Of a stretch of DNA of 57,925 nucleotides, positions 8,992 to 55,131 are shown one piece after another. The notes under the pieces are model-generated. The model worked only from the letters and a program-made list of their open reading frames with translations. It did not search any database and had not been told where the DNA came from. Position numbers and translations under genes: made by a program. The stretch's first letter is position 1, and each line of letters begins with the position of its first letter. Location of the stretch: IMG/VR virus record IMGVR_UViG_3300009160_000051, positions 1 through 57,925 of that record; one strand, written 5' to 3'. The DNA is from a virus (Duplodnaviria > Caudoviricetes).

Positions 8992-10062
8992 TTAAGCTGC
9001 GTTGTAACGGGCAACAGCGATTGCTTCTGGACGAAGAATCTTGCGACCATACAAGTGCATACCACGTACAATGTCAGCGAAGCTGTCTGGATCACGATAG
9101 CTTTCTGTCTTGGTGATTTGTTGAGCAGATGCAACAGCAGCATCTTGACCTGCAACGATAATACCGTAGTTAGAGGACTGAGCAGAAGAACCAGCTGTAC
9201 CGGGACCAGTACCAACTTTAGGTAGGTTGTTAGAAACGTATACACGGAAACCATGTAAGTTGTTCAAAATCAAACCATTCTGCAAGCCAGATCCACCGAA
9301 GTCACCATTCAATAAACGGCTATCTTCATCTTTCAACAACTCGATAAATACTGGATCAAGAACAATCCAACGACCTTGTGAGTCAACTAACTGTGTATCC
9401 AACAAGCGACCCATACGAGCAATCACTTGCAATGGAGATACAGTAGCTGTTGGCAATGCTGTTGCACCGGGAAGGCGTGGAGCCAAAGGAATAGAATCAC
9501 CTGTGGAACCAGCAGATGTCAATTGACCAAAAGATGGACGGCTTAACTTCATTGTGGACAACAACTCATCTGAACCAGCTTCTGTCAAAGCCTTAGTACC
9601 GGGGTAAGTAGTACGGACTGTGTCAGACTGAACGTGCTTAGCAGACTGGCTGTAGCCAGAGAGGTAACCCAAAACGTCTTGGTCATACTGGTCACGCAAG
9701 CGATAAGCTGCACGATCAGAAGCCATGCTCATGAAGTTAACGTGGCTATGGGCTGCTTCGATATCGTCAATCTTGAATGCGAAGTAGTTAGCTTGGTCAA
9801 CAGTCAATGTGAAGTCTTCGTCATTCAGGTCTTGTGCAGTGATTTGTGTACCACGAGCATATGACTGAACTGAAACTTCTGGCTCTTTGATGATCTTTAC
9901 AGAGTCACCCATGTTAGCGATCTCACCGAAGTAGTCGCTGTTAGTGATAGCTTCAACAGTAGAAGCTTTACGGAATGCAAGTTGTACTTGCTTGGAATAG
10001 ATTACTGGGCTAAAATTACCATTAGGTAAATTGCCGTAACCTGCTGCTGATGAAAATGCCAT
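8992..10062 (-). CDS. major capsid protein (HK97 fold, P22/T7-like coat)
   Basis: FSP.IYSK...N.DY.GEI...GDSVKI and DIVRG.HLYG.K.LRPEA motifs; strong RBS; follows the scaffold gene. Confidence 0.9.
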   Translation of the reverse strand: MAFSSAAGYGNLPNGNFSPVIYSKQVQLAFRKASTVEAITNSDYFGEIANMGDSVKIIKEPEVSVQSYARGTQITAQDLNDEDFTLTVDQANYFAFKIDDIEAAHSHVNFMSMASDRAAYRLRDQYDQDVLGYLSGYSQSAKHVQSDTVRTTYPGTKALTEAGSDELLSTMKLSRPSFGQLTSAGSTGDSIPLAPRLPGATALPTATVSPLQVIARMGRLLDTQLVDSQGRWIVLDPVFIELLKDEDSRLLNGDFGGSGLQNGLILNNLHGFRVYVSNNLPKVGTGPGTAGSSAQSSNYGIIVAGQDAAVASAQQITKTESYRDPDSFADIVRGMHLYGRKILRPEAIAVARYNAA

Positions 10063-10368: not shown

Positions 10369-11256
10369 TTATCTGGCAGAACCAGATTTGTCATAAATAA
10401 ACTTACCTGACTGAATAGCAGCTACAATAGCCTCTTGGTACTTCTCGTATTCTGCTGAAGACATGCGTTCTACGTCAGATTCACGGAAAGTACCCTGTGC
10501 ATCTGAGGCATCAAAGCCTGTACGCTTAGCTCCCTTGATTTCCTTGGCAGCTTCTTTATCGTCAGACTTCTTAGCCTTCTTAGTACCGATACCCTTGTCT
10601 GCTTTATACAGATCAATGGCACGAGCAGCTGATACGGCATCTGCTTCATTAGCATATAGGGCATCCTGAATCCACTTAGGCTGCTCATCTACCCAGTCAT
10701 GAAACTCAGATTGCTCACGAATCTCATCAAAGTCTGGGTGCAAACGCATTAAATCTGCTTCTGCTTTTTCCCGTAGAGTCTGAGCTTGCATCTCATCAAG
10801 CTGTTTAAAACGCTCTTCAATGGAGGCATTCTGTTCTTTAGCCTTCTTGATGGCAATTGTTTCTACAATCTTAGCCACATCAGGGAACTCTTTTGCCCAC
10901 TTGTCTAACTCTTCTTCAGAGGTAGGTAGTCTCATTTGCTTAGCTGTAGATGACTGTAGTTGTTCTTGCAGTGCATCAATCTGCTTTTGCAGATCCGTCT
11001 GTTGCTTCTGAGTGTGCCTACGTAAATCTCCGTACCGCTTCTTAAAGCTTTTCTCTTCTGCACTTAGGTTAGAATCATCTTCTTCCCCTTCAGCCGTTGC
11101 TTTTTGGGCTACGTCTGTTGCCTGTGCAGCAGCAGTATTCTCTTCTGTTAACTTCTTTAATTCTTCTTCTTCTTGTTTGATCCGAGCTTCACTGGCATTA
11201 CGTGTTGCAAATCCAGACATGACTTTCTTAGGTGTTTCTACTTGTGTAAGTTCCAT
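10369..11256 (-). CDS. capsid scaffolding protein
   Basis: Acidic coiled coil, FKKRYGDLRRH, HPDF..I.....F..W and MS..EYEK motifs; upstream of MCP. Confidence 0.8.
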   Translation of the reverse strand: MELTQVETPKKVMSGFATRNASEARIKQEEEELKKLTEENTAAAQATDVAQKATAEGEEDDSNLSAEEKSFKKRYGDLRRHTQKQQTDLQKQIDALQEQLQSSTAKQMRLPTSEEELDKWAKEFPDVAKIVETIAIKKAKEQNASIEERFKQLDEMQAQTLREKAEADLMRLHPDFDEIREQSEFHDWVDEQPKWIQDALYANEADAVSAARAIDLYKADKGIGTKKAKKSDDKEAAKEIKGAKRTGFDASDAQGTFRESDVERMSSAEYEKYQEAIVAAIQSGKFIYDKSGSAR

Positions 11257-11327: not shown

Positions 11328-12680
11328 TTATGTTTTACGTACTGCTAGCCCCTTTCTGGCAGTAGCTTTCTTTTCTTTGGGTTTCTTGACTGTTTTACGA
11401 GGACCCATTAATGGCTTGTTACTATATTTTACCATAGTTGTAGAACTATTACCTATCAATCCACCCTCTGCTTTACCGATTGTTTCTGCTTCAGTATAGC
11501 CAGCAGGGATAGGTGCCTCTGGTTTGTTATCTTTAAATGGGATCAAGCGGCTATCACCTGTTGCATTTACAAACTTCTTAAGGTCATACTGAGATGGACT
11601 TACTGCAGTTAAGTCTACATTGGTAGTGCCCATTAAGTCACTACCATCCCCTGTGTTGCCATAGTCTATGCCTGTGTCCCCTGCATTTCTTTTCTGCCCA
11701 TACATGTTTGGATCATAGATAGGTGTTGGGAATACTTCATCAAGGATACTACTAGTAATTACTTTTGAGGCAAGCTTCTTACCTGCTTTTTCTAAGTCCG
11801 TATCTACTTGGATAGGTTTGTAGATCTCTCCCGGAGAGTAGGAGGCTGCAAGGTTTTGTGCAACAGCATCTTGACCGATACCTTGATTTGTTAATGTAGC
11901 AATATCTTGTGCTGCAAATTTATCAATTCCCTCACGAGACAGTGTGTCTGCCATCTGTGCATCACTAACTCCTCCGGACTGAGTACGTAAGCTTTCTGCC
12001 TGTGCTGCAGCGAACTCAGCATCTGCCTGAGCAGATGGAAGAGTAGGTTGACCAAAACCTAATTCACTCTTAAAAGCATCATAGCCTTGAGATACGCCTT
12101 GAGAAACACCTCCAGTAACACCGCCTACAACAGCACCTTTACCTGTGTTCTTTAGTACATCTTCAAAATTACCACCAGCAGCTACTGTTTTTGCAGCACC
12201 AGAAGCAGCACCCATAGTAGCACCCGCAGCTACAGCACCACCAAAGCCACCACCTGCAGCTTCAGAGATGCCGGGAGCAAACTGCCCACCTGCATAAGCA
12301 ATACCAAAAGAGGTTGCTATCTGTACAGGGCTACCCCCGTTAATAGCAGTATTAGCTGCAGCAATATAAGGAATGAGATAGTATTGTTGTGTAGCAATAG
12401 CAGCTACAGTAGCTACCGTACCTACGTCTACTTGTTGCAGTACCTCTTTATCAAACTTCTCACCAATATCCCCAAGAGCAGGACCGGGGTCTATCTTTGC
12501 TAGATCTTCACCTACTTGCTCTGTCCAGTTATCTGCTTTATCAAATGTATCACTTACAACATCAACAATATCAGATACTATAGGAATGCCGCCACCGCCA
12601 CCACCATACAGCTTAATCCTACCATTACCATAATGCTCAAACGCCCCCAGTGGGAGCATGCTGTCTAGGGTATATCTCAT
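11328..12680 (-). CDS. probable internal virion (ejection) protein, Gly/Ala-rich
   Basis: N-terminal leader ending in GGGGGG, glycine-zipper hydrophobic segments, basic C-terminal tail. Confidence 0.5.
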   Translation of the reverse strand: MRYTLDSMLPLGAFEHYGNGRIKLYGGGGGGIPIVSDIVDVVSDTFDKADNWTEQVGEDLAKIDPGPALGDIGEKFDKEVLQQVDVGTVATVAAIATQQYYLIPYIAAANTAINGGSPVQIATSFGIAYAGGQFAPGISEAAGGGFGGAVAAGATMGAASGAAKTVAAGGNFEDVLKNTGKGAVVGGVTGGVSQGVSQGYDAFKSELGFGQPTLPSAQADAEFAAAQAESLRTQSGGVSDAQMADTLSREGIDKFAAQDIATLTNQGIGQDAVAQNLAASYSPGEIYKPIQVDTDLEKAGKKLASKVITSSILDEVFPTPIYDPNMYGQKRNAGDTGIDYGNTGDGSDLMGTTNVDLTAVSPSQYDLKKFVNATGDSRLIPFKDNKPEAPIPAGYTEAETIGKAEGGLIGNSSTTMVKYSNKPLMGPRKTVKKPKEKKATARKGLAVRKT

Positions 12681-14071
12681 TTACCGATCTCCATAGTCCA
12701 GTTGAATGTACCGTTATCTTCTTGCACAGACATTGGATATTGTAATTTCTTAAGCATATTTAACAAACTTTGATTTGTAGTAGTAGACTGAATGCGGGTT
12801 GTTCCTACATTTTGTAAAGTTTGAATGCCTGCTTTGATAGAGTCCTGTAATTTCTTTGGGTCATCCTTGGTAAACAGATGCACTTGCATTGTAGTTGGGT
12901 CTACTGGTACACCAACAAAGACAGTGTCAGAGAATCTAGCTACTGCAGCTTTCTTTTGAGCAGCACGAATAGCTAATGCACGTAAGAATACGTCTGGTTT
13001 ACCTTTGTATCCTTCTGCAGCTAGACTGTCAGTAACAATTGTAGAAGAAGATAAACCTTCAGTAGAAGGATGCAACAAGGTCTGGTCTATATCTATCTTT
13101 CGATTCTGCATATTCTTTGCAGTCTCTTGAATCTTAGACATCTGTTCTGGAGTTAGGGTAGGTGATTCAGTCGGAATAGCTTCAGGTGTCTGTTGCATTG
13201 CAGGAGTAGCAGGTTGTTCTACAGGAGCTTGTTCCATAGGCATTACATCACCACCTACAGCCATCTTCCTATCTTCACCTTCCATCTCACTCATAATGTC
13301 ATCTAGCTCTGATTCAAACTCAGAAGTATCTTCTTCTTCTGAACCATCTTCACCATTAGACATCTGACCCATGTCTTCCATCTGCATCAAGCCCTTCTTA
13401 GCAGCTTGTCGCATTTGCATGAGTCTCTCTAAGCCAATGTATCTTACTACGTCAGCTGGAAATACAAATTCACCTTCACTTAATTGTGCAGGTACATCAT
13501 CTCTTACTTCTTCTTTCATAGCACCGACAGGTACTTTGTTGCCACTAACAGGATCGACTGTGCCACCTTCTTGTAGCATACCGCCTTCTTTGAGCATACG
13601 TTGTGTTTGTGATCTCACTTGTCCACCTTTAGCCATGCCTGCTTGTTCTTTAGTTACGCCTTCTTCATCAGGATTCTTACCCGTCTTACGCATGTAATCT
13701 TCTTTCCATGCTGTTGGGTGATCTTTTGATTTAAGCATTTCTCCTGTCTTTGGATCAGAAGAACCCCAGTGATACTTGTTGTTATCATAAGGATCTCGTT
13801 CAGGTCTTACTCCTGCCTTCCATGCTTTTCTATAGTCGTACTCAGCAATATTTAAATCTGGTTCTTCGCCATACTCTTTTTTGTATTCTTTAAACCAGCC
13901 AGTTTCTCTGATGCCTTTTTGAAATTCTGCTTCTTCTTTACTGATTACAGCACCACCTGCCTGAAAAGTAGGCATCTTAATCATAGAAGAAGTAGGCTGC
14001 TGATGACCAATAGGTTCAGAGCTATCCAGTGTTACCTGCTGCATGTCTATCTTATTCAGCATTGACTTCAT
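12677..14071 (-). CDS. multidomain head-module protein with DVPA.LSEGEFV domain
   Basis: Between portal and scaffold; five hydrophobic-x-x-GG motifs; DDVPAQLSEGEFVFPADVV segment. Confidence 0.6.
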   Translation of the reverse strand: MKSMLNKIDMQQVTLDSSEPIGHQQPTSSMIKMPTFQAGGAVISKEEAEFQKGIRETGWFKEYKKEYGEEPDLNIAEYDYRKAWKAGVRPERDPYDNNKYHWGSSDPKTGEMLKSKDHPTAWKEDYMRKTGKNPDEEGVTKEQAGMAKGGQVRSQTQRMLKEGGMLQEGGTVDPVSGNKVPVGAMKEEVRDDVPAQLSEGEFVFPADVVRYIGLERLMQMRQAAKKGLMQMEDMGQMSNGEDGSEEEDTSEFESELDDIMSEMEGEDRKMAVGGDVMPMEQAPVEQPATPAMQQTPEAIPTESPTLTPEQMSKIQETAKNMQNRKIDIDQTLLHPSTEGLSSSTIVTDSLAAEGYKGKPDVFLRALAIRAAQKKAAVARFSDTVFVGVPVDPTTMQVHLFTKDDPKKLQDSIKAGIQTLQNVGTTRIQSTTTNQSLLNMLKKLQYPMSVQEDNGTFNWTMEIGK

Positions 14072-14279
14072 CCCTTAAGTACTTCAATTGACGTAGGGCA
14101 TGGATAGCCCCTTGTGCTTTATGCAATTCAACCATGTCAGCTGATTGCTCTAGCTTCTTTTGATACAGTTCAATATAAAAATCAAGGGACTCTGTGTAAG
14201 CATCCCATTGAGTCTTAGTATTTACAAACCCCTTAAGCTTGGGGAGGAACGGCTTGTTGTTGAGCTTGAGGTTGGACAT
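14052..14279 (-). CDS. small protein downstream of portal
   Basis: 75 aa with an AQG.I..LR.L..LRD helix, a pattern common after podovirus portal genes; start uncertain (overlaps portal end). Confidence 0.6.
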   Translation of the reverse strand: MSNLKLNNKPFLPKLKGFVNTKTQWDAYTESLDFYIELYQKKLEQSADMVELHKAQGAIHALRQLKYLRDEVNAE

Positions 14280-16338
14280 TACCTGTGAATCCTTGTTCTT
14301 GTGGAGATGGGACTTGACCTATGCCGATGTTACCACCGCCTGTGCCTGCTGTATCTGATACACCCGGTACTGCTGGTGGACCACCTGCTGGTGCCATTGG
14401 TGCTGGAGGTTGCCCTTGTTGCATTAAAGCTGCTTGACGAGTTGCCTCATCTAAACTGTTAGTCACCTTGTCTGGATCAAGATCCATTGACTTAGCAATC
14501 TCACGAATGATGTAAGGGAACTTAGCGTATGGTGCAAGTGCAGGAGAGCTAGCTACTTGAACAAACTGCATCAAGCGTTGACTACGTACTTCATTAGCCA
14601 TCAAGCTTTCTGTACCACGAGCTTTAACTTCTAAGTCACCACGAGCATCTGGATCAAAGTCAAACTGCATGTTAAAGCTAAAGAATGCTTCACCTAGTGG
14701 ACGGAGTAAGTAGTCATCTACGTTCTTGATAACAGTCTTGATACCACCTGCAGCTGCATTCATTAGCATGCTGATACCACTGGCAGTACGACCTACTCCT
14801 GCTACACCTGTCTGACCATGTGCAAAGGAAGGCATACCTGTAGATTCATCTGCAAGTACACGAGCCTTATCAAATAACTGTAGGTTCTCTTGAGATACGT
14901 TAGGGAACTTAGTACCAAAGATAGCCTGACCGGGTGCTCCACCTTGTCTACGGAATACTTTGCCGGGGTAGACAGATAAGTCTTGACCGGGAGTTAAGTT
15001 GGTTTCATCAACTTCAAATACAAGGTTGCCAGATAAGACCGCATTATCTACCGCCATACGCATGAAACCGTTCATTAAGGTCTGGGTATCGTCCATGTTT
15101 TCTGCGATACCTATGCCAAACATAGAGTAGGGGTTTAGTTCGTAGGGGACAGCATAATACGGGATCTTAGCTGGCTTAAAGGGATTCAATACCATGCGAA
15201 GAATACGACCATTACAATACCAGATGTTGGCTTGTAACTCATCAGCAATAGCTAATTCTTTAGGGATCTTAACATCATTCTGTTCTAGTAACTCACGCTC
15301 TACTGAACCCCAGTACTCTAATACTTCAAAGCGATCAATGCCTTCGCTTACTTGGTAATCATTTAAATCATCTTCCCAGTACTTCTTAACATAAGATTCA
15401 CCACGAGAGATGACATCATCAATAACTTTACTACGGAAGAAAGGACGTTTCTTTAAAGCACGTACTTGACTACGAGACATCTTGTGTCTCTCGATAATGT
15501 ACTGTGACTCATCCATGTTAGTAGCATCAGGATCAGGATAGAAATTCCAGATACTTACATGTGATGTGGATGGTACTGTCTTGATGGTAGGGGTGTAATC
15601 ACCACCTTCATTCCAGTTAGCATACTCTTTATCAATAGCAAAAGGACCCTTCATGATACCTGTACCAAAGAGTGCCATCTCAAAAGCTGTAGATCTTAGC
15701 TGCTTACTTGCATTGCTTTCTTCAAGCTGATCTTTAATCTTCTTCTCCATCTTCTTAGCAGCAACCATAGCTGGGCTAAAGGTAGCAGAAGAAGGCGTTA
15801 GACCGGGACCTGAGTTAAGGTTATCTATGCCTGACAGTTCATCAGTAAGAGGACCTAGTCTATCTTGAAGTGTCTTGTATGTAGCACCGGGAGGTAGATC
15901 TTTACCATCGCCTTTGTATCCGTAAGGAGAAAAGTCAGGAGAAGCTTCACGAACTTTAGCTTCATTCATATCAAAGCTAACGTCTTCTTCTACACCTTCA
16001 GGTAATGTAGTAGGATCTACGCTGATAGGGAAACTGTTGTTAGAGAACAGTACATCAATAATCTGACCATAGGCAGCTAGAGTCTTAGTCTTAGTTACCT
16101 TGATAAAGACACGGCTCTTCTCTGTCTCTGTGAATTGGACATCAGGACCATACAAGCCACGATAGTTACGATAGGCACGAAGCCATCTCTCTTCATCGTT
16201 ACGTCTTGCAGTCTCAGCCTTAGTGTACTTATCCATCAATAACTGTACGATAGGACCAGCTACTGCATCCTCTTCGTTGATGTTAGACACATCACCTAAG
16301 TTAATTGACTCGTCTTCTAGGAACTTTTTTTCTATCAT
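14233..16338 (-). CDS. portal (head-tail connector) protein
   Basis: 701 aa directly after TerL; RWLRAYRNYRG.Y, FYPDP, G.RTASG.SML motifs. Confidence 0.9.
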   Translation of the reverse strand: MIEKKFLEDESINLGDVSNINEEDAVAGPIVQLLMDKYTKAETARRNDEERWLRAYRNYRGLYGPDVQFTETEKSRVFIKVTKTKTLAAYGQIIDVLFSNNSFPISVDPTTLPEGVEEDVSFDMNEAKVREASPDFSPYGYKGDGKDLPPGATYKTLQDRLGPLTDELSGIDNLNSGPGLTPSSATFSPAMVAAKKMEKKIKDQLEESNASKQLRSTAFEMALFGTGIMKGPFAIDKEYANWNEGGDYTPTIKTVPSTSHVSIWNFYPDPDATNMDESQYIIERHKMSRSQVRALKKRPFFRSKVIDDVISRGESYVKKYWEDDLNDYQVSEGIDRFEVLEYWGSVERELLEQNDVKIPKELAIADELQANIWYCNGRILRMVLNPFKPAKIPYYAVPYELNPYSMFGIGIAENMDDTQTLMNGFMRMAVDNAVLSGNLVFEVDETNLTPGQDLSVYPGKVFRRQGGAPGQAIFGTKFPNVSQENLQLFDKARVLADESTGMPSFAHGQTGVAGVGRTASGISMLMNAAAGGIKTVIKNVDDYLLRPLGEAFFSFNMQFDFDPDARGDLEVKARGTESLMANEVRSQRLMQFVQVASSPALAPYAKFPYIIREIAKSMDLDPDKVTNSLDEATRQAALMQQGQPPAPMAPAGGPPAVPGVSDTAGTGGGNIGIGQVPSPQEQGFTGNVQPQAQQQAVPPQA

Positions 16339-16347
16339 TCTTTACCT

Positions 16348-17922
16348 TCAATATCCAAATGTTGGATCAGCTACCGTTATTCCAGATTTCTGGTGCATCG
16401 GATTAAAATCAAATAAGCTACTTCTAGGTCTACTCATTATACCGTAACGCATAGCATCGTAGAGGTGATCCTCTGACTTCGTATCAATATCCTCTGGATT
16501 GTGTTTATCCAAAGGCAGGATAGGAAGTTGTGCAATTAGATTAGTACAGTTGCTAGTTATAACCAGTCTTGGCTCTTCTGTAAAGTCATCTACCTGTAAT
16601 CGTCTATGTATTTCATTCTTACCTGCTACACGACTACCAGCACTACGGTCTGATGGTCGCCATCTACACCCTTGCATGATCATTTGCTCTGCAAGTGATG
16701 GACCTGTATCACCACGCTTGTGCCAACAGGAACTATCCAGTACACCATAGCGAATAGTCCCATCATTCTGCTCAGCTTCTAGTACTTTTACTGCTAAATC
16801 CTTGGCAAGTACCTTACTAACGTACAATTCCCTGTAGATTACCAGCTGTTCGCTAGGACTTACAGCAAACCAGACAACGGCTGAGTAAGAACCGTAACCA
16901 TAGTCACACGCTCTGAACTTAACCCAGTTTTTAGGTATGTCCATCGGGTCAATAACATGAATCTGACGGTTAAACTCTGGAAAAGCTGCACCTTCTGATA
17001 CATCCCAGTTACCTTCCAACAATTGCTTACGTTGATGCTCTGGTAAAGAGAGAAGCATCGTCTCATAATCACCCTGATCAGCAAGATACGGGTTATCTGT
17101 CAGCATTGCAGGTATAAACCTACGCTTAAACAGGGGTTGACCATCCTTACTATGACCTTTAGGGTAGGCTAATGTTTGCCCTGTCTCAATATCTGTAGCC
17201 CAAAACGCTTTTCCTGCAGGTGATGGGTCAATAAACATCTTTTTAACCCATGCATGACCCGGTCCACCGGGGTTAGTTGTAGCTCTCATGAAGATTGGTA
17301 GGTCTGGAGCAGTACTACGTAGACGAGAACGCATATAGTTCCACGCAAATGGGGTAGACCACTGCGTTAACTCGTCAAATCCTACCCAACTAAACGCTAA
17401 ACCTTGGTATCTGAGTACGTCTTCGTCTCTATCAAGGTATGAAAACCACAATCTAGCCCCACTTGGAGCTACCCACTGCATCTTTCTTTCTGACCACTTG
17501 ATACCCGGATAGATCTTCGGGTACATTTCCTGTGATTTCCAGATTAATTCTCGAAGTTCTTCAGTAGTATGACGTAACAGAAGACCGCTAAAAGCATTAT
17601 GCCCCATATATCGTAGGGGGTCAGCAAGCATAGCATAAGATTTTCCTCCTCCTGCTGCACCTCCGTACAATACTTCACGTTCTGGTGCTGCTAAAAAGTA
17701 AGTCTGTGGTCCTACATTCGGTTTAAAGATAATGTTCTGACCTTCTAAGTCAGTAATATGCATTATCTCTTCTTCTTCACTTGACTGCATCAGCTGTATC
17801 GGTGCTGGTGTCTCTTTTACTTCCGAGTCTTTGTTCGAGCTTCTCCGCTTCTTCAATCGCTTTTTTGTACCTTGTAGCCCATCCTCTGAGCGTAGAAGCT
17901 TTTGTCTTGTTTCGCTGCTCAT
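16348..17922 (-). CDS. terL: terminase large subunit
   Basis: Walker A YGGAAGGGKS, Walker B WVGFDE, TTNPGG, nuclease DYGY and DHLYDA.RY; true start may be 17790 or 17763. Confidence 0.95.
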   Translation of the reverse strand: MSSETRQKLLRSEDGLQGTKKRLKKRRSSNKDSEVKETPAPIQLMQSSEEEEIMHITDLEGQNIIFKPNVGPQTYFLAAPEREVLYGGAAGGGKSYAMLADPLRYMGHNAFSGLLLRHTTEELRELIWKSQEMYPKIYPGIKWSERKMQWVAPSGARLWFSYLDRDEDVLRYQGLAFSWVGFDELTQWSTPFAWNYMRSRLRSTAPDLPIFMRATTNPGGPGHAWVKKMFIDPSPAGKAFWATDIETGQTLAYPKGHSKDGQPLFKRRFIPAMLTDNPYLADQGDYETMLLSLPEHQRKQLLEGNWDVSEGAAFPEFNRQIHVIDPMDIPKNWVKFRACDYGYGSYSAVVWFAVSPSEQLVIYRELYVSKVLAKDLAVKVLEAEQNDGTIRYGVLDSSCWHKRGDTGPSLAEQMIMQGCRWRPSDRSAGSRVAGKNEIHRRLQVDDFTEEPRLVITSNCTNLIAQLPILPLDKHNPEDIDTKSEDHLYDAMRYGIMSRPRSSLFDFNPMHQKSGITVADPTFGY

Positions 17923-18208
17923 TTTTTATTCTTTTTAGTAATCCAGCGTGTGATATCTCTCTGCCTGTTATCTTGGTTAACCATGCTGCCACTTGCCTAG
18001 ACGGATATTGCTTTAAGTATTTCTTTGCTTGCTCTAGTGATTCTAATTCCAAAGGAATGGGATCTAACATTGTCTCATCTGTCTCGGATACTTTGTACCC
18101 AAAAGGTACCCATATCTTAGCAATCCTTGGGATTGAAACATATTCCCCAGTACTCTTAGCTTCTTCAGGCTGGGGTAGTATCCACTTTCCAACCGCAGCA
18201 CGTACCAT
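17777..18208 (-). CDS. DNA-binding-like protein upstream of TerL
   Basis: IPRI...PFGY...P.P.ELE.L...R.VAAWL HTH-like segment. Confidence 0.6.
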   Translation of the reverse strand: MVRAAVGKWILPQPEEAKSTGEYVSIPRIAKIWVPFGYKVSETDETMLDPIPLELESLEQAKKYLKQYPSRQVAAWLTKITGREISHAGLLKRIKNEQRNKTKASTLRGWATRYKKAIEEAEKLEQRLGSKRDTSTDTADAVK

Positions 18209-18210
18209 AG

Positions 18211-18585
18211 TTAATCTTGTTCAGGTTCTTTTTCTTTAGGTGGAAGAATCATTAAACCGTTAGTAGCTTCGACTTGTACCTTCTCTGTCTTAACTAAACC
18301 TACACGATCTAAAAGATCCTTAGCTGCTGACAGTTTATCACGTAATCCTAATTCTGTTGGGTCTACCATGCCAGATACAATTGACATAGCAGCACGAGGA
18401 GCATTACGTGCCATGTATAGTTGAGTACGTTCCATGATCTCATCTTTAAGTCCTTTAATGATTTCAGAAGTAGGACTATTGGCTGAGTAGCCAGCTAGTT
18501 CTTTTGCACGTACAACATCTCCATGAGCTTGTTCAAATAGAACCTCAAGGAACATAGACTGTTTTTCTGTTAGCTCTCTTGCCAT
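18211..18585 (-). CDS. terS: probable terminase small subunit
   Basis: LTEKQ..FL....A..AGYS N-terminal HTH typical of TerS; upstream of TerL. Confidence 0.6.
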   Translation of the reverse strand: MARELTEKQSMFLEVLFEQAHGDVVRAKELAGYSANSPTSEIIKGLKDEIMERTQLYMARNAPRAAMSIVSGMVDPTELGLRDKLSAAKDLLDRVGLVKTEKVQVEATNGLMILPPKEKEPEQD

Positions 18586-18986
18586 TAGTCTTCTTCACTT
18601 TCATATTCTTTACGTTCCCATGCTTGGCATACACGTAAGTTATGGCAGATAAAATCAAACTTAGTACACCAACCCTTACCGCCACCATCTGCATCGAAAT
18701 GATTAAAAGGAACACTCTCCATTGCTTCTTGTTGTTCTGGTGTATTATCAAAGTACTCACAGTTAGCACATAGCATACGTCTTGCTTCTGGTTCTTCTAC
18801 ACCCCAGATATCTGCCATCATGACCCAGTACTCTTTATTATCTCCGGGTTTGGGAGAAGCTACTTCAGGACCTAGATTCCAATCCTTAATAGTTTTTTCT
18901 AGATTTATTTTATTTTGCTTTGGATCTACAGAGGGAATTACCTCATAGCAACAATCCATCTCGGGGGACATTAGACCTTTTTTCAT
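18585..18986 (-). CDS. Cys-rich putative metal-binding protein
   Basis: CANC...WC....C....C..W motif. Confidence 0.55.
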   Translation of the reverse strand: MKKGLMSPEMDCCYEVIPSVDPKQNKINLEKTIKDWNLGPEVASPKPGDNKEYWVMMADIWGVEEPEARRMLCANCEYFDNTPEQQEAMESVPFNHFDADGGGKGWCTKFDFICHNLRVCQAWERKEYESEED

Positions 18987-19234
18987 ACTGTTTTCCTAAA
19001 TGGTTTGACCTTCTTTGCTACTGTCTTTGGCTGGGCTACAAACTGCTTACCAGCTTTAGTACCCTCACGCTTAGCCTTAGTTGTTGCTGCGTATTCTGCA
19101 GAGCTTAATGCCTTAATTGCTTTCTCAGGTAAGTAACGCTCCCCTGTCTCAGAAGACTTCTTACCAGACTTAGTAGTCCACTTTTGTTTACCCCAAGCCT
19201 TTAAGGATTCCTGTGGTTTCTTTAGTGCACTCAC
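18983..19234 (-). CDS. small basic protein (DUF5872-like)
   Basis: SLK.W.KQKW.TKSGK.S..TGERYLP.KAI motif; GTG start. Confidence 0.65.
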   Translation of the reverse strand: MSALKKPQESLKAWGKQKWTTKSGKKSSETGERYLPEKAIKALSSAEYAATTKAKREGTKAGKQFVAQPKTVAKKVKPFRKTV

Positions 19235-19416
19235 TTGTATCCTCCACCAGCAGCTTTATACTTCTTAGCTACTAGCTGTGCTTTTCTAGCAGACCACTCT
19301 CCAGCACCAGTTCCCTGCGTAGCTGAAGACTTTACTGCTGACACAATACGCTTGCGTAGTTCAGGCTTTGTGTAGTTACATGCAGCATTAACGGTTGATT
19401 TCTTTTTAGTTGCCAT
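19231..19416 (-). CDS. small basic protein
   Basis: YTKP.LRKRI...WSARKAQL..K.YK..GGGYK. Confidence 0.65.
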   Translation of the reverse strand: MATKKKSTVNAACNYTKPELRKRIVSAVKSSATQGTGAGEWSARKAQLVAKKYKAAGGGYK

Positions 19417-19418
19417 AG

Positions 19419-19751
19419 TTATAGAGCCGTAGCGAAGTCTTCAAATAGTTTAATTGTTACTGTAACACTAGAATCAACACTAGCTAACCCACGAATCTGA
19501 TCGGTTGCAATAAGATACAAAGGTTCTTCAATTTGTAATACACTATTAGGTACTAGTACCGTATCTTTCATAATGTAGTACCAAGTGGTATTGACAGAGT
19601 CATACCATTCAATTGAGACTTGTTTAGAAGAACTTGTAGTGTTAGCTACAATAATACTAGTAACTGCAGAATTCCATCTTGTAGGTACTGTGTAGATATC
19701 GCTGTTAGATGTCGTTAAGACTTTTCCAAGTGTTCTATTTTTAGTTGGCAT
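19419..19751 (-). CDS. small virion structural protein
   Basis: beta-rich, YT.P...I.VAN pattern similar to 3692..4018. Confidence 0.55.
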   Translation of the reverse strand: MPTKNRTLGKVLTTSNSDIYTVPTRWNSAVTSIIVANTTSSSKQVSIEWYDSVNTTWYYIMKDTVLVPNSVLQIEEPLYLIATDQIRGLASVDSSVTVTIKLFEDFATAL

Positions 19752-19756
19752 AGTCT

Positions 19757-20533
19757 TTACGCAGCAGTATTACTAATTAAAACACCTTGCAAAATTAAAC
19801 CCACAGAATGTGTTCCACTAGCGGTAGAAAATTGCCATTGGATATCTGTCTTTTGCGTGTAAGGGAATGGATTATTGCGTATTACTTGATATTTTGAATC
19901 CCATGCTGTTTGCAATACAGTAAGGGTTACAGGGTTGGTTTGGGCATTATTTGTGCTTTTTACTTGATAATTGATTGCATTACCAGCCGCAGCGTCACCA
20001 TTAAAAGCATTGATTGACCCAAGATACATTGTGTACCCATTTGGTACAGAGTACACAGCGGCTTGTGACCTTCCTACACCTGCTGAAATTTGAGAATAAG
20101 TAATACCACCATTTTTTGCCGTGATCGAACCTACGTTAGTAGTTTGACCTGTACCTGTGCTAGTCAGAATCATGCTATTAATACGTAGAAACTGGTTTGT
20201 TGTAGTTACATTCGATGTTCCATTTAGAGTTACCGTTTCAGATAGCAGATTCCAACTGGAGTCTAGCCCATTAATTAGAACAGTAGCTCTTGTATTATCA
20301 GAAGCAGACGTACTGGCAAGAGTCATAGTTACTGCAGATGCAGGAAAAGCGAATTGTGTAGTTCCTGTTAATTCCCACAGTGTGTAAAATGTAGTTTTAA
20401 CATTATCTGAAAAGGCAAAAATATTAACCTGACTAACATCGGCTACTTTACCACGAGCAACCTGCATCTCCCAAGGGGCTGCAAGGGAAGATCCAGTATT
20501 ACTAGCTAATGGTGGATAGGATGTAATACTCAC
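19757..20533 (-). CDS. putative virion structural protein
   Basis: 258 aa Ser/Thr-rich beta protein (I.GLD..W....ETVTLNGT..V.T...FLRIN). Confidence 0.55.
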   Translation of the reverse strand: MSITSYPPLASNTGSSLAAPWEMQVARGKVADVSQVNIFAFSDNVKTTFYTLWELTGTTQFAFPASAVTMTLASTSASDNTRATVLINGLDSSWNLLSETVTLNGTSNVTTTNQFLRINSMILTSTGTGQTTNVGSITAKNGGITYSQISAGVGRSQAAVYSVPNGYTMYLGSINAFNGDAAAGNAINYQVKSTNNAQTNPVTLTVLQTAWDSKYQVIRNNPFPYTQKTDIQWQFSTASGTHSVGLILQGVLISNTAA

Positions 20534-20977
20534 TTACTTCTTCTTCACTTTGCGTGCTTCAGATAAAGCAATGGCAATAGCCTGCTTTGGATTCTTAACT
20601 ACAGGACCACCCTTACCAGAGTGTAATGACTTGTCTTTGAACTCGCCCATAACTTTACCGACCTTAGCAGTTTGCTTTTTAGTCAAACCCTTGCTCGCTG
20701 TCGCTACGCCACCATCAGCCATCTTCTTAGTTTTTACTGGGGAGAATTTAGTAACACCTGCCTTAGCAGCTTTAGAACCAGATTTTTTAATCACAGAACC
20801 ACCTTTACGCATTCCGGGAGTTGATAGAGTAGCAGACTTCTTTTGTTGTATCGCATTTTGTAAATCTTGAATCTGCTTATTTAACCTAGAGTCAGGAACA
20901 GATCTACCCGCTGCAGCTTTCTTAGCAGCAATTAATTCCTGAGTTAAAGAGTTAATTTCTAAATCATCTTGAGTCAT
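20534..20977 (-). CDS. Lys-rich protein with xxxGG tags and a DUF6496-like C-terminus
   Basis: MRKGG, MADGG; KVM.EFK...LHSG...V.NPKQAIAIALSEA. Confidence 0.65.
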   Translation of the reverse strand: MTQDDLEINSLTQELIAAKKAAAGRSVPDSRLNKQIQDLQNAIQQKKSATLSTPGMRKGGSVIKKSGSKAAKAGVTKFSPVKTKKMADGGVATASKGLTKKQTAKVGKVMGEFKDKSLHSGKGGPVVKNPKQAIAIALSEARKVKKK

Positions 20978-20980
20978 GAC

Positions 20981-21265
20981 TTAGCACTTCTTCTTGCTCA
21001 TACCACCTTTGTTCATCTTTGGCTTACCTACGGCAATCATCACTGCCAGTGTAGGTTTCTTAGAAGCTGTTTTCTTAGCTGGTGCTTTCTTAGCTACTGC
21101 ACCACCTTTAGCCATTTTAGTCTTCTTAGCTTCTTCAGCAGCCTTCTCTTTAGCCTTAGATTCTTTGTACTTAGCGATATCTTTCTCTGCTTGGGCATTC
21201 TCTTCTTTAGTACCCATTACATTCTCTTTAATACGGGTAAAGAAGTTATCTGATTTAGATGGCAT
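20981..21265 (-). CDS. Lys-rich protein with xxxGG tags
   Basis: MAKGG, MNKGG. Confidence 0.65.
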   Translation of the reverse strand: MPSKSDNFFTRIKENVMGTKEENAQAEKDIAKYKESKAKEKAAEEAKKTKMAKGGAVAKKAPAKKTASKKPTLAVMIAVGKPKMNKGGMSKKKC

Positions 21266-21266
21266 G

Positions 21267-21446
21267 TTATTTTCCTAATGTCTTTAATGTCTTAGCTAGT
21301 CGAGCACGTTGCCCCATCTTACCGGGTGCTTTAGCTGCCTTGTCTAGTTTTTTAGCAGGGATAGTTTCACCCTCTTTTACTTTTAAGGACTTACGCAAAG
21401 CACCGGGTTTCTTGATAGCTTCTTGAATCCAGTTCTTAGTAGCCAT
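21267..21446 (-). CDS. small basic protein (59 aa, not in the ORF track)
   Basis: Translates as MATKNWIQEAIKKPGALRKSL...GKMGQRARLAKTLKTLGK; fills the gap between neighbours exactly. Confidence 0.75.
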   Translation of the reverse strand: MATKNWIQEAIKKPGALRKSLKVKEGETIPAKKLDKAAKAPGKMGQRARLAKTLKTLGK

Positions 21447-21450
21447 AGTA

Positions 21451-21876
21451 TTACTTCTTCTTCATAGCCATGCCACCACAAGCCATAGCAGGTTTAACAG
21501 AAGCACCACAGTTAGCATAGCCACCTTTGTTCATCTTAACTACAGAACCACCCTTAGCCATAGCTACTTTCTTTTTAGACACATAGCCACCACTCTTGTA
21601 ATCCAAAGATTGCTGTAGGTCTTTCTTTTCTTTCTCAGTCAAAGCACCCTTCTTAGCTGCAGGCTTATCTTTGCCCATAGCAGAAGCATAGGCTTCTTTA
21701 TCTGCAGCAGCTTCTTCTTTCTTAGTTAACTTCTTAGAAGCTTCTGCTTTCTTTTCTTTAGCAAATTCTTTCTGAGCCATTGCTGTCTCTTCATCATAGC
21801 CGGGGCTACCTGTGAATTTCTTAGCTGCCTTGTCCATTGCTTCTAATTGCTTAGTTAAAAATTTAGCGAGTGCCAT
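21451..21876 (-). CDS. Lys-rich protein with four xxxGG tags
   Basis: YKSGG, MAKGG, MNKGG, MACGG; RBS AAGGA. Confidence 0.65.
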   Translation of the reverse strand: MALAKFLTKQLEAMDKAAKKFTGSPGYDEETAMAQKEFAKEKKAEASKKLTKKEEAAADKEAYASAMGKDKPAAKKGALTEKEKKDLQQSLDYKSGGYVSKKKVAMAKGGSVVKMNKGGYANCGASVKPAMACGGMAMKKK

Positions 21877-21900
21877 TGCTGTGTTTCCTTTAGTTAAAAA

Positions 21901-22239
21901 TTACTTACCGTAAAACTTGTTGAGGGGATGACTACGTGATTTTGTTACCATACCACCGCTATTAAAGTCTTCTCTAAGATCTTTGTAGTCTGGTGCTTTA
22001 GTTTCAGCTTCGCCTGCTTTTCTTTTTTCTTTATTCTTTTCTCTACGGATCATTTCTTCATCAGCAGCAAGACGGTCATTGATTGACTTAGAAGCTGTAG
22101 AATTTGCTTCTAGCTCAGCTTTAGATTTCTTAGCCATTTCAACTTTCTTTGCAGCTAGCTCTACCTTACCCTGTTCTTCCTTCGGATACTTTTTAGAAAG
22201 CCTACCTACAAACTCCGCTGCTTTTTTTGATACTGGCAT
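21901..22239 (-). CDS. Lys/Glu-rich protein with an xxxGG tag
   Basis: FNSGGMV near the C-terminus. Confidence 0.6.
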   Translation of the reverse strand: MPVSKKAAEFVGRLSKKYPKEEQGKVELAAKKVEMAKKSKAELEANSTASKSINDRLAADEEMIRREKNKEKRKAGEAETKAPDYKDLREDFNSGGMVTKSRSHPLNKFYGK

Positions 22240-22266: not shown

Positions 22267-22536
22267 TTACCACTTAACCTTGTCAGCCCAGTATGCAGCT
22301 GATAGCTTACCCTTTGAAATATTCTTAGCGTGTCTTGCCTTGAATGACTTTTGTCTAGCTTTCTCTGCAGGTGTCGAAGGATTAGATCCAGCACCTGATA
22401 CACCTTGTTGTCCAAATCGGATAAGCTTCTCTGTACTGCCTTCCTTAGCTAGCACAGCATGTGACTTAGTAGGATGTTGGGGAGTTCTCTTCGGTTTATT
22501 ATAACCAGCAAACTCTTCCTTACCTTTTTTAATCAT
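22267..22536 (-). CDS. small basic protein
   Basis: NKPKRTP.HP.KSH.V...IRFG.QG...SFKARH...SAAYWA...W. Confidence 0.7.
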   Translation of the reverse strand: MIKKGKEEFAGYNKPKRTPQHPTKSHAVLAKEGSTEKLIRFGQQGVSGAGSNPSTPAEKARQKSFKARHAKNISKGKLSAAYWADKVKW

Positions 22537-28727: not shown

Positions 28728-29093
28728 ATGAAAGTATATGTATACCGCAACTTACACAAGGACTGTTGGTCAATCAAGGCACTCGAAGGTAACAACAAGG
28801 GCAAGGTCGTATACCATGCACAGACTGTGACCCTATCGAACTGCACATTCAAGGTGTCCAAGGCAGGCAGAGAGCGTGTGCTGCGGGACAAGCGTAAGAA
28901 TGTACATGCAGGTGTAGCAGGTGAACTAATCAGGGTCAACATTCCCCTTAGCTACATGCCACAGATGACTGCAGTTACCTACAATCCATACAAGTATGAA
29001 TCATTTGTCCGTAAGTACAACGACTTCATGCCAGTACACAATGCTAGTTGGGTATACATGGCAGATGACAAAAGTGTAGGGGCTATCCTGTAA
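28728..29093 (+). CDS. conserved-type phage hypothetical protein
   Basis: VYRNLHK.CWS...F.V...GR..V....RKNVHA...YNPY motif. Confidence 0.7.
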   Translation: MKVYVYRNLHKDCWSIKALEGNNKGKVVYHAQTVTLSNCTFKVSKAGRERVLRDKRKNVHAGVAGELIRVNIPLSYMPQMTAVTYNPYKYESFVRKYNDFMPVHNASWVYMADDKSVGAIL

Positions 29094-32874: not shown

Positions 32875-32879
32875 TGATA

Positions 32880-32906
32880 GGGGAGGGTAACACCTCCCTT
32901 ATTTTT
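32880..32906 (+). terminator. rho-independent terminator
   Basis: GGGAGG-GTAACA-CCTCCC followed by TTATTTTT. Confidence 0.75.
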
Positions 32907-32931
32907 CTTCAATGAAATCAAGGAGTTACGA

Positions 32932-53001: not shown

Positions 53002-55131
53002 TTATCTGTCATATTCGTCTGTTATTTGATCAGAGGGCAAAGCACCAGAAGGGGTAAAGGTATCTCTCTCAAACAGACCACCAGCCCAGTTAATAATTCC
53101 CTTACCTGCGTTACCAGCAACACTGAAGATGTCACCTAAGAACTTACCACCTGTAGTGCCACTTAAAATGGTAGCAGCTGAAGTGCCAATGGTCTTAGTA
53201 ATCTCAGCATCCTTAGCCATAGTAGCTGCTAGGATTTGAGCATTAGCTGAGATCTCAGAAGTTGCAATCTTATTAACACGATCAGCAGCGGACTCAGCAG
53301 ACTTCCATGAGTATTCAATCTCATCACGGAACTGTTGCCACATGTTATTGTATTCTACCATAGTTACTTCCATTGCCTTGGTAGCATTGAACTCATTAGC
53401 TCTGTTAATAGCTGCAGTGTTAGCAGTAGAAATCTCTCTACGCCACTGAGCATTAGACTGATCAATCACTAAACGATTCTGTGCATTAAAGCTATCACGT
53501 TGATTCTGTACCTCAGCATTGAACTGCGAGACTGCATTTGTCTGCTGTGTATTAAACTGTGACATAGCATTTGTCTGTGTGGAGTTAAACTGTCCCACTT
53601 GTGTAGTCAAGTTAGCAAAGAACTGATCTGTCTGGTTCTGACTGCTAGCATTAAACTGACGAGAAGCATTCTCTGCAGCTGCATCTGTTAGGATAGACTG
53701 TACATTAGACTGTGCCTTGAACATCTCTGTCTGTTGCTCGTTAGCTAAGTTAGTCATGTCCATCTGTAGGAAAGACTGAGCATTAACTACAGCAGACTGT
53801 TGTCTATTGTTTAAGTTAGCAGTCTCTAAGTTAGCTATCTGTGCAGCATTAGCCATAACTAAAGCTTGATTGTTACTTAGATTAGCTAGGTCCATAGACT
53901 GAGCAAGTCTTGCATTCTCTAAAGCAATCTGCTGCTGGGCAGTAAAGTTTACATTAGCAATGTCAGCTACACGAGCAGCATTAGTTACACGAGTCTGAAA
54001 CTCTTGATCAAAGGATTGACCTAAGAATGCAGCACGTTGCTGTGCACTTAATACAGCTACTTGCTGTCTGTTAGATAGATTCTGTAATCCCATCTGCTGG
54101 TATGCTTGAGCATCTGCAGAAGCGATAGGTGTAGCAGCTTCGAGTGTAGCTTGAATGATAGCTTGACCTGCTAGGCTAGAAGCACCTAAACCTCTAGCTG
54201 CCATCTGTGCAGTAGCATTACGTAATGAAGCAGCAGCCCAAGCTGGAGGATTACCTGTTTCAAAGTTAGTCATCAGATTATCAAGCTGACCTTGAACTGT
54301 CATCTCTTTTGTAACTACTCCCTGTGCAGCTTCATTCTTAGCAAGGTTAGCTTCTACAGTAGCCATGTCTACAGCAGGACCAGTAACTAATTCACCAGTC
54401 TGTAGAGTACGACTTGGTGCATTCTGTACTTGTCCTGTGATACCTTGTGCAGCTTGTAGCTGACCTACCTGAGTTGCAGCAGGAGTAACTTGAGCAGCTT
54501 GAACCTGAGCCTGATCTGATACAGTACCCTGTGCAGCTTGAGTAGCAGCAGTTACAGCTTGCACTGTAGGTGCAGTAGATACAGATTGCATTGTAGCTGC
54601 AGGAGTTACAGTGGGTGCAGTAACTGTGGAGACTGTAGGTGCAGTAGCAGCAGTGACTGTGTTTGCCTGTGTAGGGGCTAACTGTGTATCAAGTGTCTGC
54701 CCAGCTTGAACTGCTTGTAATGCAGGTGCTACTTGAGCAACTTGGGGTTGAATAGGAATACCAGTAGTTGCATTGATAGTAGTCTTACCTGCAGGCGTAT
54801 TTGTTGTAGGTGTATTTGTCGGAGCAAAATTATCAACAGGACTAGGCATAGCACCTACAACAGAATCCGCAGGCATCCATTCACCTCTAGTTTCACTCCA
54901 AACAGTTCCCGGAGGAGGTCCATTACCCGGCTCAAATTTACTTACTGCCCCACCATCAGCCATCTTTACCATGCCACCACGAGCCATGAACTTCTCTACG
55001 ATAGTGCCATACTTCTGTGCATCAGAAGGAGTAGATTTAAGATACTCATCAAACATATTCATAGGACCTTCGTAACCCATCCTACGGGCTACTACTTCCT
55101 TTTGTTTTGATGTAAATGATTTATCTGCCAT
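53002..55131 (-). CDS. Ala/Gln/Asn-rich internal virion protein
   Basis: Long QFNA/NQQ coiled-coil repeats; MARGG and MADGG tags near the N-terminus. Confidence 0.65.
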   Translation of the reverse strand: MADKSFTSKQKEVVARRMGYEGPMNMFDEYLKSTPSDAQKYGTIVEKFMARGGMVKMADGGAVSKFEPGNGPPPGTVWSETRGEWMPADSVVGAMPSPVDNFAPTNTPTTNTPAGKTTINATTGIPIQPQVAQVAPALQAVQAGQTLDTQLAPTQANTVTAATAPTVSTVTAPTVTPAATMQSVSTAPTVQAVTAATQAAQGTVSDQAQVQAAQVTPAATQVGQLQAAQGITGQVQNAPSRTLQTGELVTGPAVDMATVEANLAKNEAAQGVVTKEMTVQGQLDNLMTNFETGNPPAWAAASLRNATAQMAARGLGASSLAGQAIIQATLEAATPIASADAQAYQQMGLQNLSNRQQVAVLSAQQRAAFLGQSFDQEFQTRVTNAARVADIANVNFTAQQQIALENARLAQSMDLANLSNNQALVMANAAQIANLETANLNNRQQSAVVNAQSFLQMDMTNLANEQQTEMFKAQSNVQSILTDAAAENASRQFNASSQNQTDQFFANLTTQVGQFNSTQTNAMSQFNTQQTNAVSQFNAEVQNQRDSFNAQNRLVIDQSNAQWRREISTANTAAINRANEFNATKAMEVTMVEYNNMWQQFRDEIEYSWKSAESAADRVNKIATSEISANAQILAATMAKDAEITKTIGTSAATILSGTTGGKFLGDIFSVAGNAGKGIINWAGGLFERDTFTPSGALPSDQITDEYDR

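Follow-up and report, generated by a model that had tools for sequence, protein, structure and literature searches.

Background

Targeting peptides, packaged polyvalent proteins (PMC5512222) and the cleavage of tape measure proteins are already known kinds of element, and the system described in the following bears on all three of them. It consists of a short Gly-Gly peptide tag, which recurs in several otherwise apparently unrelated proteins of one virus, and of a conserved GEFV module in the protein encoded next to the portal. Both are found in a 57,925-base stretch of DNA, the whole virus record IMGVR_UViG_3300009160_000051 (referred to as the window), which is that of an HMO-2011-type marine podophage. 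According to published work, few virus groups of the sea are as abundant as phages of this type (PMC9038755).

Cleavage within the Gly-rich C-terminal region of gpH, the tape measure protein of phage lambda, yields gpH* and gpHC, a fragment of ~14 kDa; the cleavage site and the catalyst are given as unknown and residues ~690–817 as unresolved (PMC12617516). Residues 818–849 sit on the gpI plug (PMC12617516, PMC10721106). In phage T5 the tape measure protein pb2 is converted to pb2* and pb2C, and mass spectrometry puts the cut after R1127 (PMC10038345). Polyvalent proteins as described by Iyer et al. 2017 combine one constant part with highly variable enzyme domains, and their processing into units has been proposed (PMC5512222).

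A sequence-only reading of the window had suggested that a shared hydrophobic-x-x-G-G tag is a cleavage or docking signal, which cuts polyproteins into basic peptides and/or loads cargo into the prohead and which is probably read by the GEFV protein. Some further systems invite comparison with such a tag. The T4 capsid targeting sequence and the encapsulin cargo-loading peptides are terminal targeting peptides for protein shells, and adenovirus-type cysteine proteases cut (M/I/L)-X-G-G-X sites behind the second Gly, giving rise to basic core peptides. MuF-type head proteins with variable effector ends are known as well, among others from work on MuF polymorphic toxins.

Results

The tag and its enrichment

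The tag has the seven-residue consensus [M/F/Y/L]-A-x-G-G-[hydrophobic]-[V/A/M], of which positions 0, 1, +5 and +6 are specifically conserved. It is a short linear motif that is itself conserved, unlike its carriers, which match different protein families or none. All 17 copies of the sequence-only reading are present, namely five in the 464-amino-acid (aa) protein, four in the 141-aa protein, two each in the 147-aa, 94-aa and 709-aa proteins and one each in the 450-aa and 112-aa proteins (Table 1), and the observation that they are usually followed by x-V is true of 11 of them. The same regular expression also matches KAAGG in a 61-aa open reading frame (ORF) at 19231–19416 and, in what was taken as a spurious match, the ORF 32871–33110, which is antisense to plus strand replication genes.

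For the enrichment test 300 within-protein shuffles were used, which keep the composition of each protein, with a portal-strand set of 42 proteins (10553 aa) and a replication-strand set of 40 proteins (6827 aa). In the portal-strand set the original regular expression gave 18 matches against an expectation of 4.4 ± 2.0, M..GG gave 11 against 1.5 and [MFYL]..GG[^G][VAIM] gave 15 against 2.5, and none of these counts was reached by any of the 300 shuffles. The GG dipeptide alone is not enriched in this set (76 against 64.6, reached by 23 of the 300 shuffles). Met accounts for 2.6% of the residues, yet it stands three positions ahead of GG in 11 of 65 cases. The replication-strand set gave 0, 1 and 0 matches to the three patterns. 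The regular expression was fitted to the window after the data had been seen, and independent replications therefore weigh more. Among the portal-strand proteins of other complete genomes, 15 strict tags were counted in HMO-2011 (4.4 expected), 12 in G002 (4.3), 9 in CRP-1 (4.8; reached by 4 of 100 shuffles) and 9 in HTVC115P (4.2; reached by 5 of 100), and the proteins on the DNA polymerase strand of these four genomes hold 0–1. Across 80 IMG/VR loci with a GEFV module there are 353 strict tags where 107 are expected. The comparison of late with early proteins, as proposed in the sequence-only reading, hence shows enrichment over composition in the portal-strand proteins only, both here and in the relatives, the carriers being called late from their strand and operon position. 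These data support a genuine tag, which is under selection as a protein sequence and does not extend beyond the portal-strand (structural-operon) proteins.

Trivial origins of the motif were considered and rejected. A compositional artefact is not in line with the shuffles, which do not reproduce the motif. An in-frame Shine-Dalgarno artefact (K-G-G from AAGGAGG) would require GGA-GGN, which is found in 0 of 24 tags, GGT-GGT being used in 11 and GGT-GGC in 6. Internal translation starts or fused N-termini were dismissed as well, for in none of 129 M-[ASNTG]-x-G-G sites of module-bearing genomes is the Met the first one of the open frame. Finally, a motif at the level of the DNA was considered: ATGGCNNNNGGNGG has 8 matches against 0.18 expected, but all of them are on the coding strand and in frame and the F/Y/L variants use other codons, for which reason the protein-level reading is preferred.

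The GEFV module and its protein

The 464-aa protein contains a module of ~95 residues with the layout 'double-GG...GEFVFP...helix...acidic...GG'. Members of the module family number 3450 proteins in one database, and a second one holds 3106 clusters (50% identity) at E<=1e-3 and 298 at E<=1e-30. The module is ~65–80% identical among clusters with otherwise unrelated parts, its position is free within proteins of 130–1600 aa and it may recur two or three times. The spacing of the tags is fixed, the double tag being placed 34 and 40 residues before GEFV and a further tag 64–73 residues after it. In 150 module representatives 698 tags were counted against 216 expected, and among 61 homologues of the 464-aa protein the tag cores are 90–100% conserved, compared with 30–70% for the linkers. 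The FQAGG tag ahead of the N-domain is poorly conserved, because many homologues have no leader.

The placement of this gene between portal and scaffold, as given in the sequence-only reading, recurs in the relatives: the portal is directly upstream in all 56 loci that reach far enough in this direction, and scaffold or capsid genes are downstream in 34 of 34. Fused domains could be recognised in 23 of the 51 longest among the 150 representatives, some of them below the cut-off of Pfam. They comprise phage tail lysozyme (6), L5_gp82 (6), LPD23 (4) and LysM (2) as well as single cases of ART-PolyVal, methyltransferase, HNH, RTX, DUF4214 and, sub-threshold, TMP_3. Only 6 of 104 tags, from 17 fused proteins, lie inside a recognised non-module domain.

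In the AlphaFold2 (AF2) model the 464-aa protein has two folded domains, at residues 43–146 and ~330–464, and the module shows pLDDT (predicted local distance difference test) values of 30–47. Modelled alone, it reaches a pLDDT of 60, with only the helix after GEFV moderately confident; in either form there is no fold to search with. All five tags of this protein lie in stretches with a pLDDT below 50 or at domain edges, so that the location at domain boundaries and in disordered linkers claimed earlier holds for it; the claim that these linkers are Lys-rich applies to the flanks of the small proteins and fails for the 464-aa protein, the flanks of which are acidic. The C-domain (12680–13084) is predicted to adopt a GNAT acetyltransferase fold (12 Foldseek matches in the PDB at E<=1e-3, the best being 5e96 at 2e-4). 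Two 'Internal virion protein A' entries of a viral structure library also matched this domain (E about 3e-3).

Pfam, NCBIfam (both scanned to E<=10) and PHROG have no match to the module or the 464-aa protein, the PDB searched by sequence and by profile gives chance matches only for the module (E>0.9), and the ESM Atlas gives unnamed viral clusters only, the nearest named entry, a crAss cargo protein, being at chance level (0.82). Judging from the models, the module resembles an extended binding region under strong conservation more than it does a globular enzyme, which speaks mildly against the idea that the module itself might be the protease.

Many module proteins end in a tag. It is found within the last 20 residues of 57 of the 150 representatives (41 of the 71 with at least 600 aa), where 5.0 ± 2.2 are expected, and has the consensus ...KKMKRGGLASKK-COOH. 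Taken together, the position of the locus, the fused domains and the co-linearity with gpH described below make the module protein look like an internal or ejected polyvalent protein.

Coupling of tag and module

Genomes with the module carry the tag on several other proteins as well, which is the case in the window, HMO-2011, CRP-1 and HTVC115P. The portal-adjacent gp72 of the latter has the C-terminal sequence ...DGEFVFTAKAV...MMAKGGLL, and KKKMMGGGMM...KKKMMHGGAI is the sequence of its 45-aa neighbour. HTVC033P, RHph_N3_13 and CHOED, which have the same portal type, show neither module nor tags. Among 80 HTVC033P-type loci, the portals of which are 81–92% identical, no GEFV-like protein, no protein with at least two tags and 27 strict tags against 52.8 expected were found, compared with 101 proteins with at least two tags in the 80 module loci.

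The 709-aa protein fits this coupling. Across 27 phage records, module-less relatives included, the body is conserved and the tagged N-terminal part is not; the orthologues of HMO-2011 and CRP-1 have double tags. For the small tagged proteins of the window, tblastn gave no match in either of these two phages, yet the syntenic small proteins there are tagged too (FNRGGMV, MAYGGMS, MMRGGMA, FKKGGMA, YNKGGYA and the like). In the 80 IMG/VR module loci there are 43 distinct non-module proteins with at least two tags and a median length of 147 aa. Their consensus is KKK-[M/Y/L/F]-A-K-G-G-M-[A/V]-KKK with a commonest tag spacing of 11 residues, the tags are biased to the C-terminal half and some of the proteins have eight or more tandem copies. 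The distance from the last tag to the C-terminus of a small carrier is usually between a few and ~18 residues.

The copy number varies within the family of the 141-aa protein (159 homologues): among 120 homologues examined, 60 have two tags, 56 have three and 4 have four. A C[GS]AS sequence right behind the last tag is invariant in all 120, and a C-terminal Cys ends the 94-aa protein of the window and small tag proteins in two IMG/VR loci. The DUF6496 match of the 147-aa protein (1.4e-8) is to a Pfam family of unknown function. The 450-aa protein has a weak PHROG match to an internal virion protein, and in 8 long members of the family a region behind the module matches its residues 351–418, which suggests that it corresponds to the parts downstream of the module in fused relatives; in HMO-2011 a single 762-aa protein, gp49, lies at this position.

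Comparison with tape measure proteins

The sequence-only reading had stated that tape measure proteins of the lambda type carry such tags next to a GEFV segment and that gpH is matured by proteolysis. Indeed, lambda gpH carries FATGG...GEFVF...YATGG at residues 733–785. It reads ...FHFATGGFTGTGGKYEPAGIVHRGEFVFTKEATSRIGVGNLYRLMRGYATGGYVG... and ends ...MRDGGLFSGGGR, and the window module LKEGGMLQEGGTVDP...SEGEFVFPADVVRYIG...helix...MAVGG is co-linear with FATGGFTGTGGKYEP...RGEFVFTKEATSRIG...YATGG of gpH. An hhalign comparison of the two aligned the double tag, the GEFVF core and the helix over 50 columns with 32% identity (E 0.002, probability 13.7%). No tape-measure family of Pfam or NCBIfam matches the module or the 464-aa protein (E<=10), one relative having a sub-threshold TMP_3, so that the link to lambda rests on this weak co-linear profile match. 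The region in gpH and the module in the window are alike in being unresolved or disordered, and gpH leaves the particle ahead of the DNA. They differ in that the window is that of a podophage, with the gene between portal and scaffold and not in a tail module. Its gene set, with SU10-type portal and adaptor, does not point to a length-determining protein of a long tail. Moreover, among 21 lambda proteins scanned only gpH has the tag, whereas in the window it is spread over several other proteins.

In T5, pb2 reads ...NSFVPR(1127)AEGGMMYPGVSYQMGEHGTEVVTP..., that is, RAEGGMM, 10 residues and then GEHGTEVVTP. The mapped cut, between VPR and AEGGMM, falls inside the tag and two residues ahead of GG. 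By analogy, pb2 provides the idea of cleavage with one experimentally anchored precedent.

Discussion

The explanation that we tentatively prefer, and to which we would give somewhat less than an even chance, is that the tag is a shared recognition or docking peptide for internal, ejected proteins and that some of the copies in linkers may be maturation cleavage sites. In HMO-2011-type podophages the tag would be common to the assembly partners of an internal (ejection) protein that is tape-measure-like and has its gene immediately behind that of the portal. The constant part of this ejection protein would be the intrinsically unstructured ~95-residue module and its variable parts would be enzyme domains, GNAT-like in the window and lysozyme/LysM, ADP-ribosyltransferase, methyltransferase and others elsewhere. 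The tags would mainly act as docking peptides, in Lys-flanked copies that are arranged in tandem, with a period of ~11 residues, or placed near the C-terminus, and they would give the small basic proteins, the 709-aa protein and also the polyvalent protein an anchor on a single partner that all of them share within the particle. The tagged proteins would be part of the virion. Copies in inter-domain linkers may be sites where a precursor is cut at maturation, as in the T5 tape measure protein.

The layout of the tags is multivalent and terminal, as is typical of anchors. Docking is favoured by the C-terminal and tandem tags, where cutting would release only scraps; cutting at the linker copies is favoured by the tags between domains that are expected in different compartments and by the T5 site. 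The earlier suggestion of a cleavage or docking signal thereby receives indirect support from the T5 cut and from the C-terminal tags of the module proteins, and the part of it that has polyproteins cut into basic peptides is awkward for tags lying a few to ~18 residues from the C-terminus.

Several points weigh against the preferred explanation. The 80 loci without the module are essentially one clade and thus provide few independent contrasts. The GEFV module is a candidate reader of the tag by lineage-level co-occurrence only, which a third component would explain equally well. No receptor was found for the tag, AF2 shows the module only as a helix and disorder, and none of the solved structures and curated families searched matches it. 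The similarity to lambda gpH is weak at the probability given above; in the T5 tag, position 0 is R and thus not hydrophobic, and the 'GE' element is a different one. A C-terminal tag is missing from gp49 of HMO-2011 and from gp49 of CRP-1, and no virion proteomics of the HMO-2011-type group was found in the literature passages searched. Last, docking and cleavage fit the present results alike.

Among the alternatives, a pure processing signal survives best, but we consider it unlikely. All tags would then be endoproteolytic sites, cut between a hydrophobic or basic residue and A-x-G-G, with no docking role, and a host protease, a phage protease or the GEFV module would release separate modules and short basic peptides from polyvalent precursors and from Lys-rich proteins. 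The cleavage of T5 pb2 inside such a tag agrees with this, as does the cleavage that lambda gpH undergoes close to its first tag, the catalyst being given as unknown: a cut between F733 and A734 would fall between computed masses of 13.0 kDa (after 730) and 12.2 kDa (after 737), compared with the ~14 kDa reported. It would also account for tags that flank nearly every domain and lie in disordered linkers, and for fused domains expected in different compartments, such as lysozyme/LysM on the one hand and GNAT/ART/methyltransferase on the other. However, no protease is conserved with the tags: apart from a ClpP-like gene, which occurs in 1 of 5 complete module-bearing genomes, only an M15 peptidase beside the holin and no prohead protease family was found. 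Tags close to the C-terminus and 11-residue arrays would yield nothing but tiny peptides, residues are conserved on both sides of GG and no ORF starts with M-A-x-G-G (0 of 129 sites), which implies that the N-terminus of such a product is not independently selected.

A ClpP-like protease was also considered as a conserved reader of the tag and was rejected, being absent from HMO-2011, CRP-1, HTVC115P and G002. The gene of the window is located in the replication module and has, besides its Pfam match, a weaker match to a ClpP-related head maturation protease model.

A podophage ejection protein that is cut beside GG by a host enzyme is P22 gp7 (9369–10058), which according to the annotation of NC_002371 loses 20 N-terminal residues to host OpdA between ...SYPE and KGGKGGADK. 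This loss speaks for processing, but it concerns a single N-terminal site in another register without a GEFV element, and gp7, gp20 and gp16 of P22 have no comparable set of tags.

Adenovirus-type sites resemble the tag in that they occur on basic proteins associated with DNA and have a hydrophobic residue ahead of G-G. They differ in that this residue stands two positions ahead of GG and not three, and in that the sole mapped cut at a tag, the one in T5, is two residues before GG and not after it; no adenovirus-type protease gene was found.

The peptides of T4 and the encapsulins are likewise short Gly/hydrophobic sequences, often terminal and on unrelated cargo. The tag is C-terminal in 57 of the 150 module proteins and in most small carriers, but many copies are internal or in tandem and some occur in tail-lumen proteins, for which a capsid shell plays no part.

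With regard to the polyvalent proteins, the 464-aa protein shares the combination of a constant part with highly variable enzyme domains, the location of the gene beside the portal, among the virion genes of a portal-terminase phage (56/56 and 34/34 loci), and, in relatives, the domains LPD23 and ART-PolyVal. The unrelated enzyme domains vary between relatives, and in the window there are the GNAT-like domain and a second folded domain. An unstructured constant module of ~95 residues is not mentioned in the part of PMC5512222 considered here, nor is a repeated tag common to other proteins. Pfam showed neither a MuF domain nor a metallopeptidase (MPTase) domain in the 464-aa protein.

Distinctly improbable in our view is that the tags are DNA-condensing repeats, in which Lys-flanked G-G hairpins bind nucleic acid in protamine-like proteins packed with the genome and the module copies are a separate matter. 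The carriers are small and Lys-rich, a period of ~11 residues is, if extended, near one turn of DNA and small genes nearby show similarity to DUF6496 and to part of phrog_220, 'minor head protein and DNA pilot'. On the other hand the same motif has acidic flanks in the module proteins and is found at the tip end of tape measure proteins, no DNA-binding family was matched, and runs of Lys alone would bind DNA, so that the conserved hydrophobic-x-x-G-G core needs another reason.

The least probable alternative, a flexible hinge or turn without a dedicated reader that is favoured in low-complexity linkers of one phage lineage and has spread by descent and repeat expansion, would suit the disordered, low-complexity surroundings of the tags, the copy number of 2 to 4 within the 141-aa family and the origin of the positive genomes from related lineages, but it fails to explain that composition-keeping shuffles do not reproduce the tags, that positions 0, 1, +5 and +6 are specifically conserved, that the motif recurs in non-homologous carriers and in the tape measure proteins of lambda and T5 and that the HTVC033P-type sister lineage is depleted of it.

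A bolder version of the preferred docking explanation is a long shot. Tag and GEFV module would then form a general, portable signal for internal proteins, common to podophage ejection proteins and siphophage tape measure proteins. As an assembly-triggered docking and self-processing element it would explain the cleavage of gpH and pb2, mark the proteins that are threaded out before the DNA and, in marine phage lineages numbering thousands, bring enzymes of any kind into the particle.

Neither the module nor a tag common to the particle-associated proteins of one phage was found in the curated libraries or the literature passages searched, and a literature search with the motif strings of tag and module returned no phage papers, as judged by titles and abstract openings. 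A module of more than 3000 protein clusters, located in the portal-adjacent gene of abundant phages, is thus without an entry in Pfam, NCBIfam or PHROGs. A tag shared by the companions of this gene would provide a sequence-based list of packed and injected proteins, including acetyltransferases, ADP-ribosyltransferases and lysozymes. For the lambda tape measure protein, the cleavage site of which has long been sought, it would suggest a candidate that can be tested. Cargo could be brought into phage particles by simple means, provided that the tag is sufficient for loading.

Genome organisation and additional features

The portal of the window shares ~70% identity with its counterparts in Puniceispirillum phage HMO-2011 and Roseobacter phage CRP-1. 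The plus strand carries the replication genes, including a DnaB-like helicase, a family A DNA polymerase, endonuclease I and a ribonucleotide reductase. The minus strand carries one long block, which runs from ~22805 down to 11 and resumes from 57628 to 47681. In order, it encodes small genes, the small and large terminase, the SU10-type portal, a 75-aa ORF, the 464-aa and 450-aa proteins, a scaffold-like protein and the major capsid protein, followed by adaptor, nozzle and fibres, holin and M15 peptidase and the 709-, 421- and 1089-aa proteins. The best two sigma-70-like sites of this strand, 23209–23181 and 23116–23087, are immediately upstream of the block. A scan for terminator-like sites on the minus strand gave none between 22805 and 17471 and three weak ones further down (17471–17454, 16895–16877 and 13069–13056).

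Table 1. Positions of the tag carriers, of the GEFV module and of other features in the window
Feature	Position	Strand	Remarks
464-aa portal-adjacent polyvalent protein	12677..14071	-	leader, tag, N-domain aa 43–146, tag, GEFV module, tag, linker, GNAT-like C-domain aa ~330–464
GEFV module (aa 146–274)	13250..13636	-	MAKGG 13622–13636, LKEGG 13580–13594, LQEGG 13562–13576, SEGEFVF 13460–13480, helix, acidic stretch, MAVGG 13250–13264
FQAGG tag (aa 36–40)	13952..13966	-	ahead of N-domain; conserved in only 16–27%
450-aa Gly/Ala-rich protein	11328..12680	-	KAEGGLI (11460–11474)
147-aa Lys-rich protein	20534..20977	-	MRKGG (20798–20812), MADGG (20708–20722); C-terminal DUF6496 domain
94-aa Lys-rich protein	20981..21265	-	MAKGG (21101–21115), MNKGG (21002–21016); end ...KKKC
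141-aa protein	21451..21876	-	helical N-part; C-terminal array YKSGG, MAKGG, MNKGG, MACGG (21472–21600); ANCGAS motif
112-aa Lys/Glu-rich protein	21901..22239	-	FNSGG (21952–21966) near C-terminus
709-aa protein	53002..55131	-	variable N-terminal extension with double tag MARGG/MADGG (54949–54987); body aa ~225–680
Portal protein (SU10/N4-type)	14233..16338	-	Pfam SU10_portal 6e-25; directly upstream of GEFV gene
Scaffold-like protein	10369–11256	-	downstream of GEFV gene pair
Major capsid protein	8992–10062	-	downstream of GEFV gene pair
75-aa ORF	14052–14279	-	overlaps portal stop and GEFV gene start
89-aa basic protein	22267–22536	-	phrog_7595
L5_gp82-like gene	28728–29093	+	stand-alone
Tyrosine integrase gene	34853–35767	+	Phage_integrase 1.3e-16
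ClpP-like serine protease gene	44141–44722	+	Pfam CLP_protease 9e-29

The 75-aa ORF is kept in 74 of the 80 module loci and also in one module-less rhizobiophage, and in HTVC115P its position is taken by the 45-aa double-tag peptide. The 89-aa basic protein, which resembles the phrog_220 segment mentioned above, is kept in HMO-2011 and CRP-1 and was not found in the examined stretches of three module-less relatives. The L5_gp82-like gene lies on the replication strand; among the 51 long relatives scanned, 6 have the same domain fused beside a GEFV module. Finally, the window encodes a tyrosine integrase in a genome that is otherwise like that of a lytic podophage.

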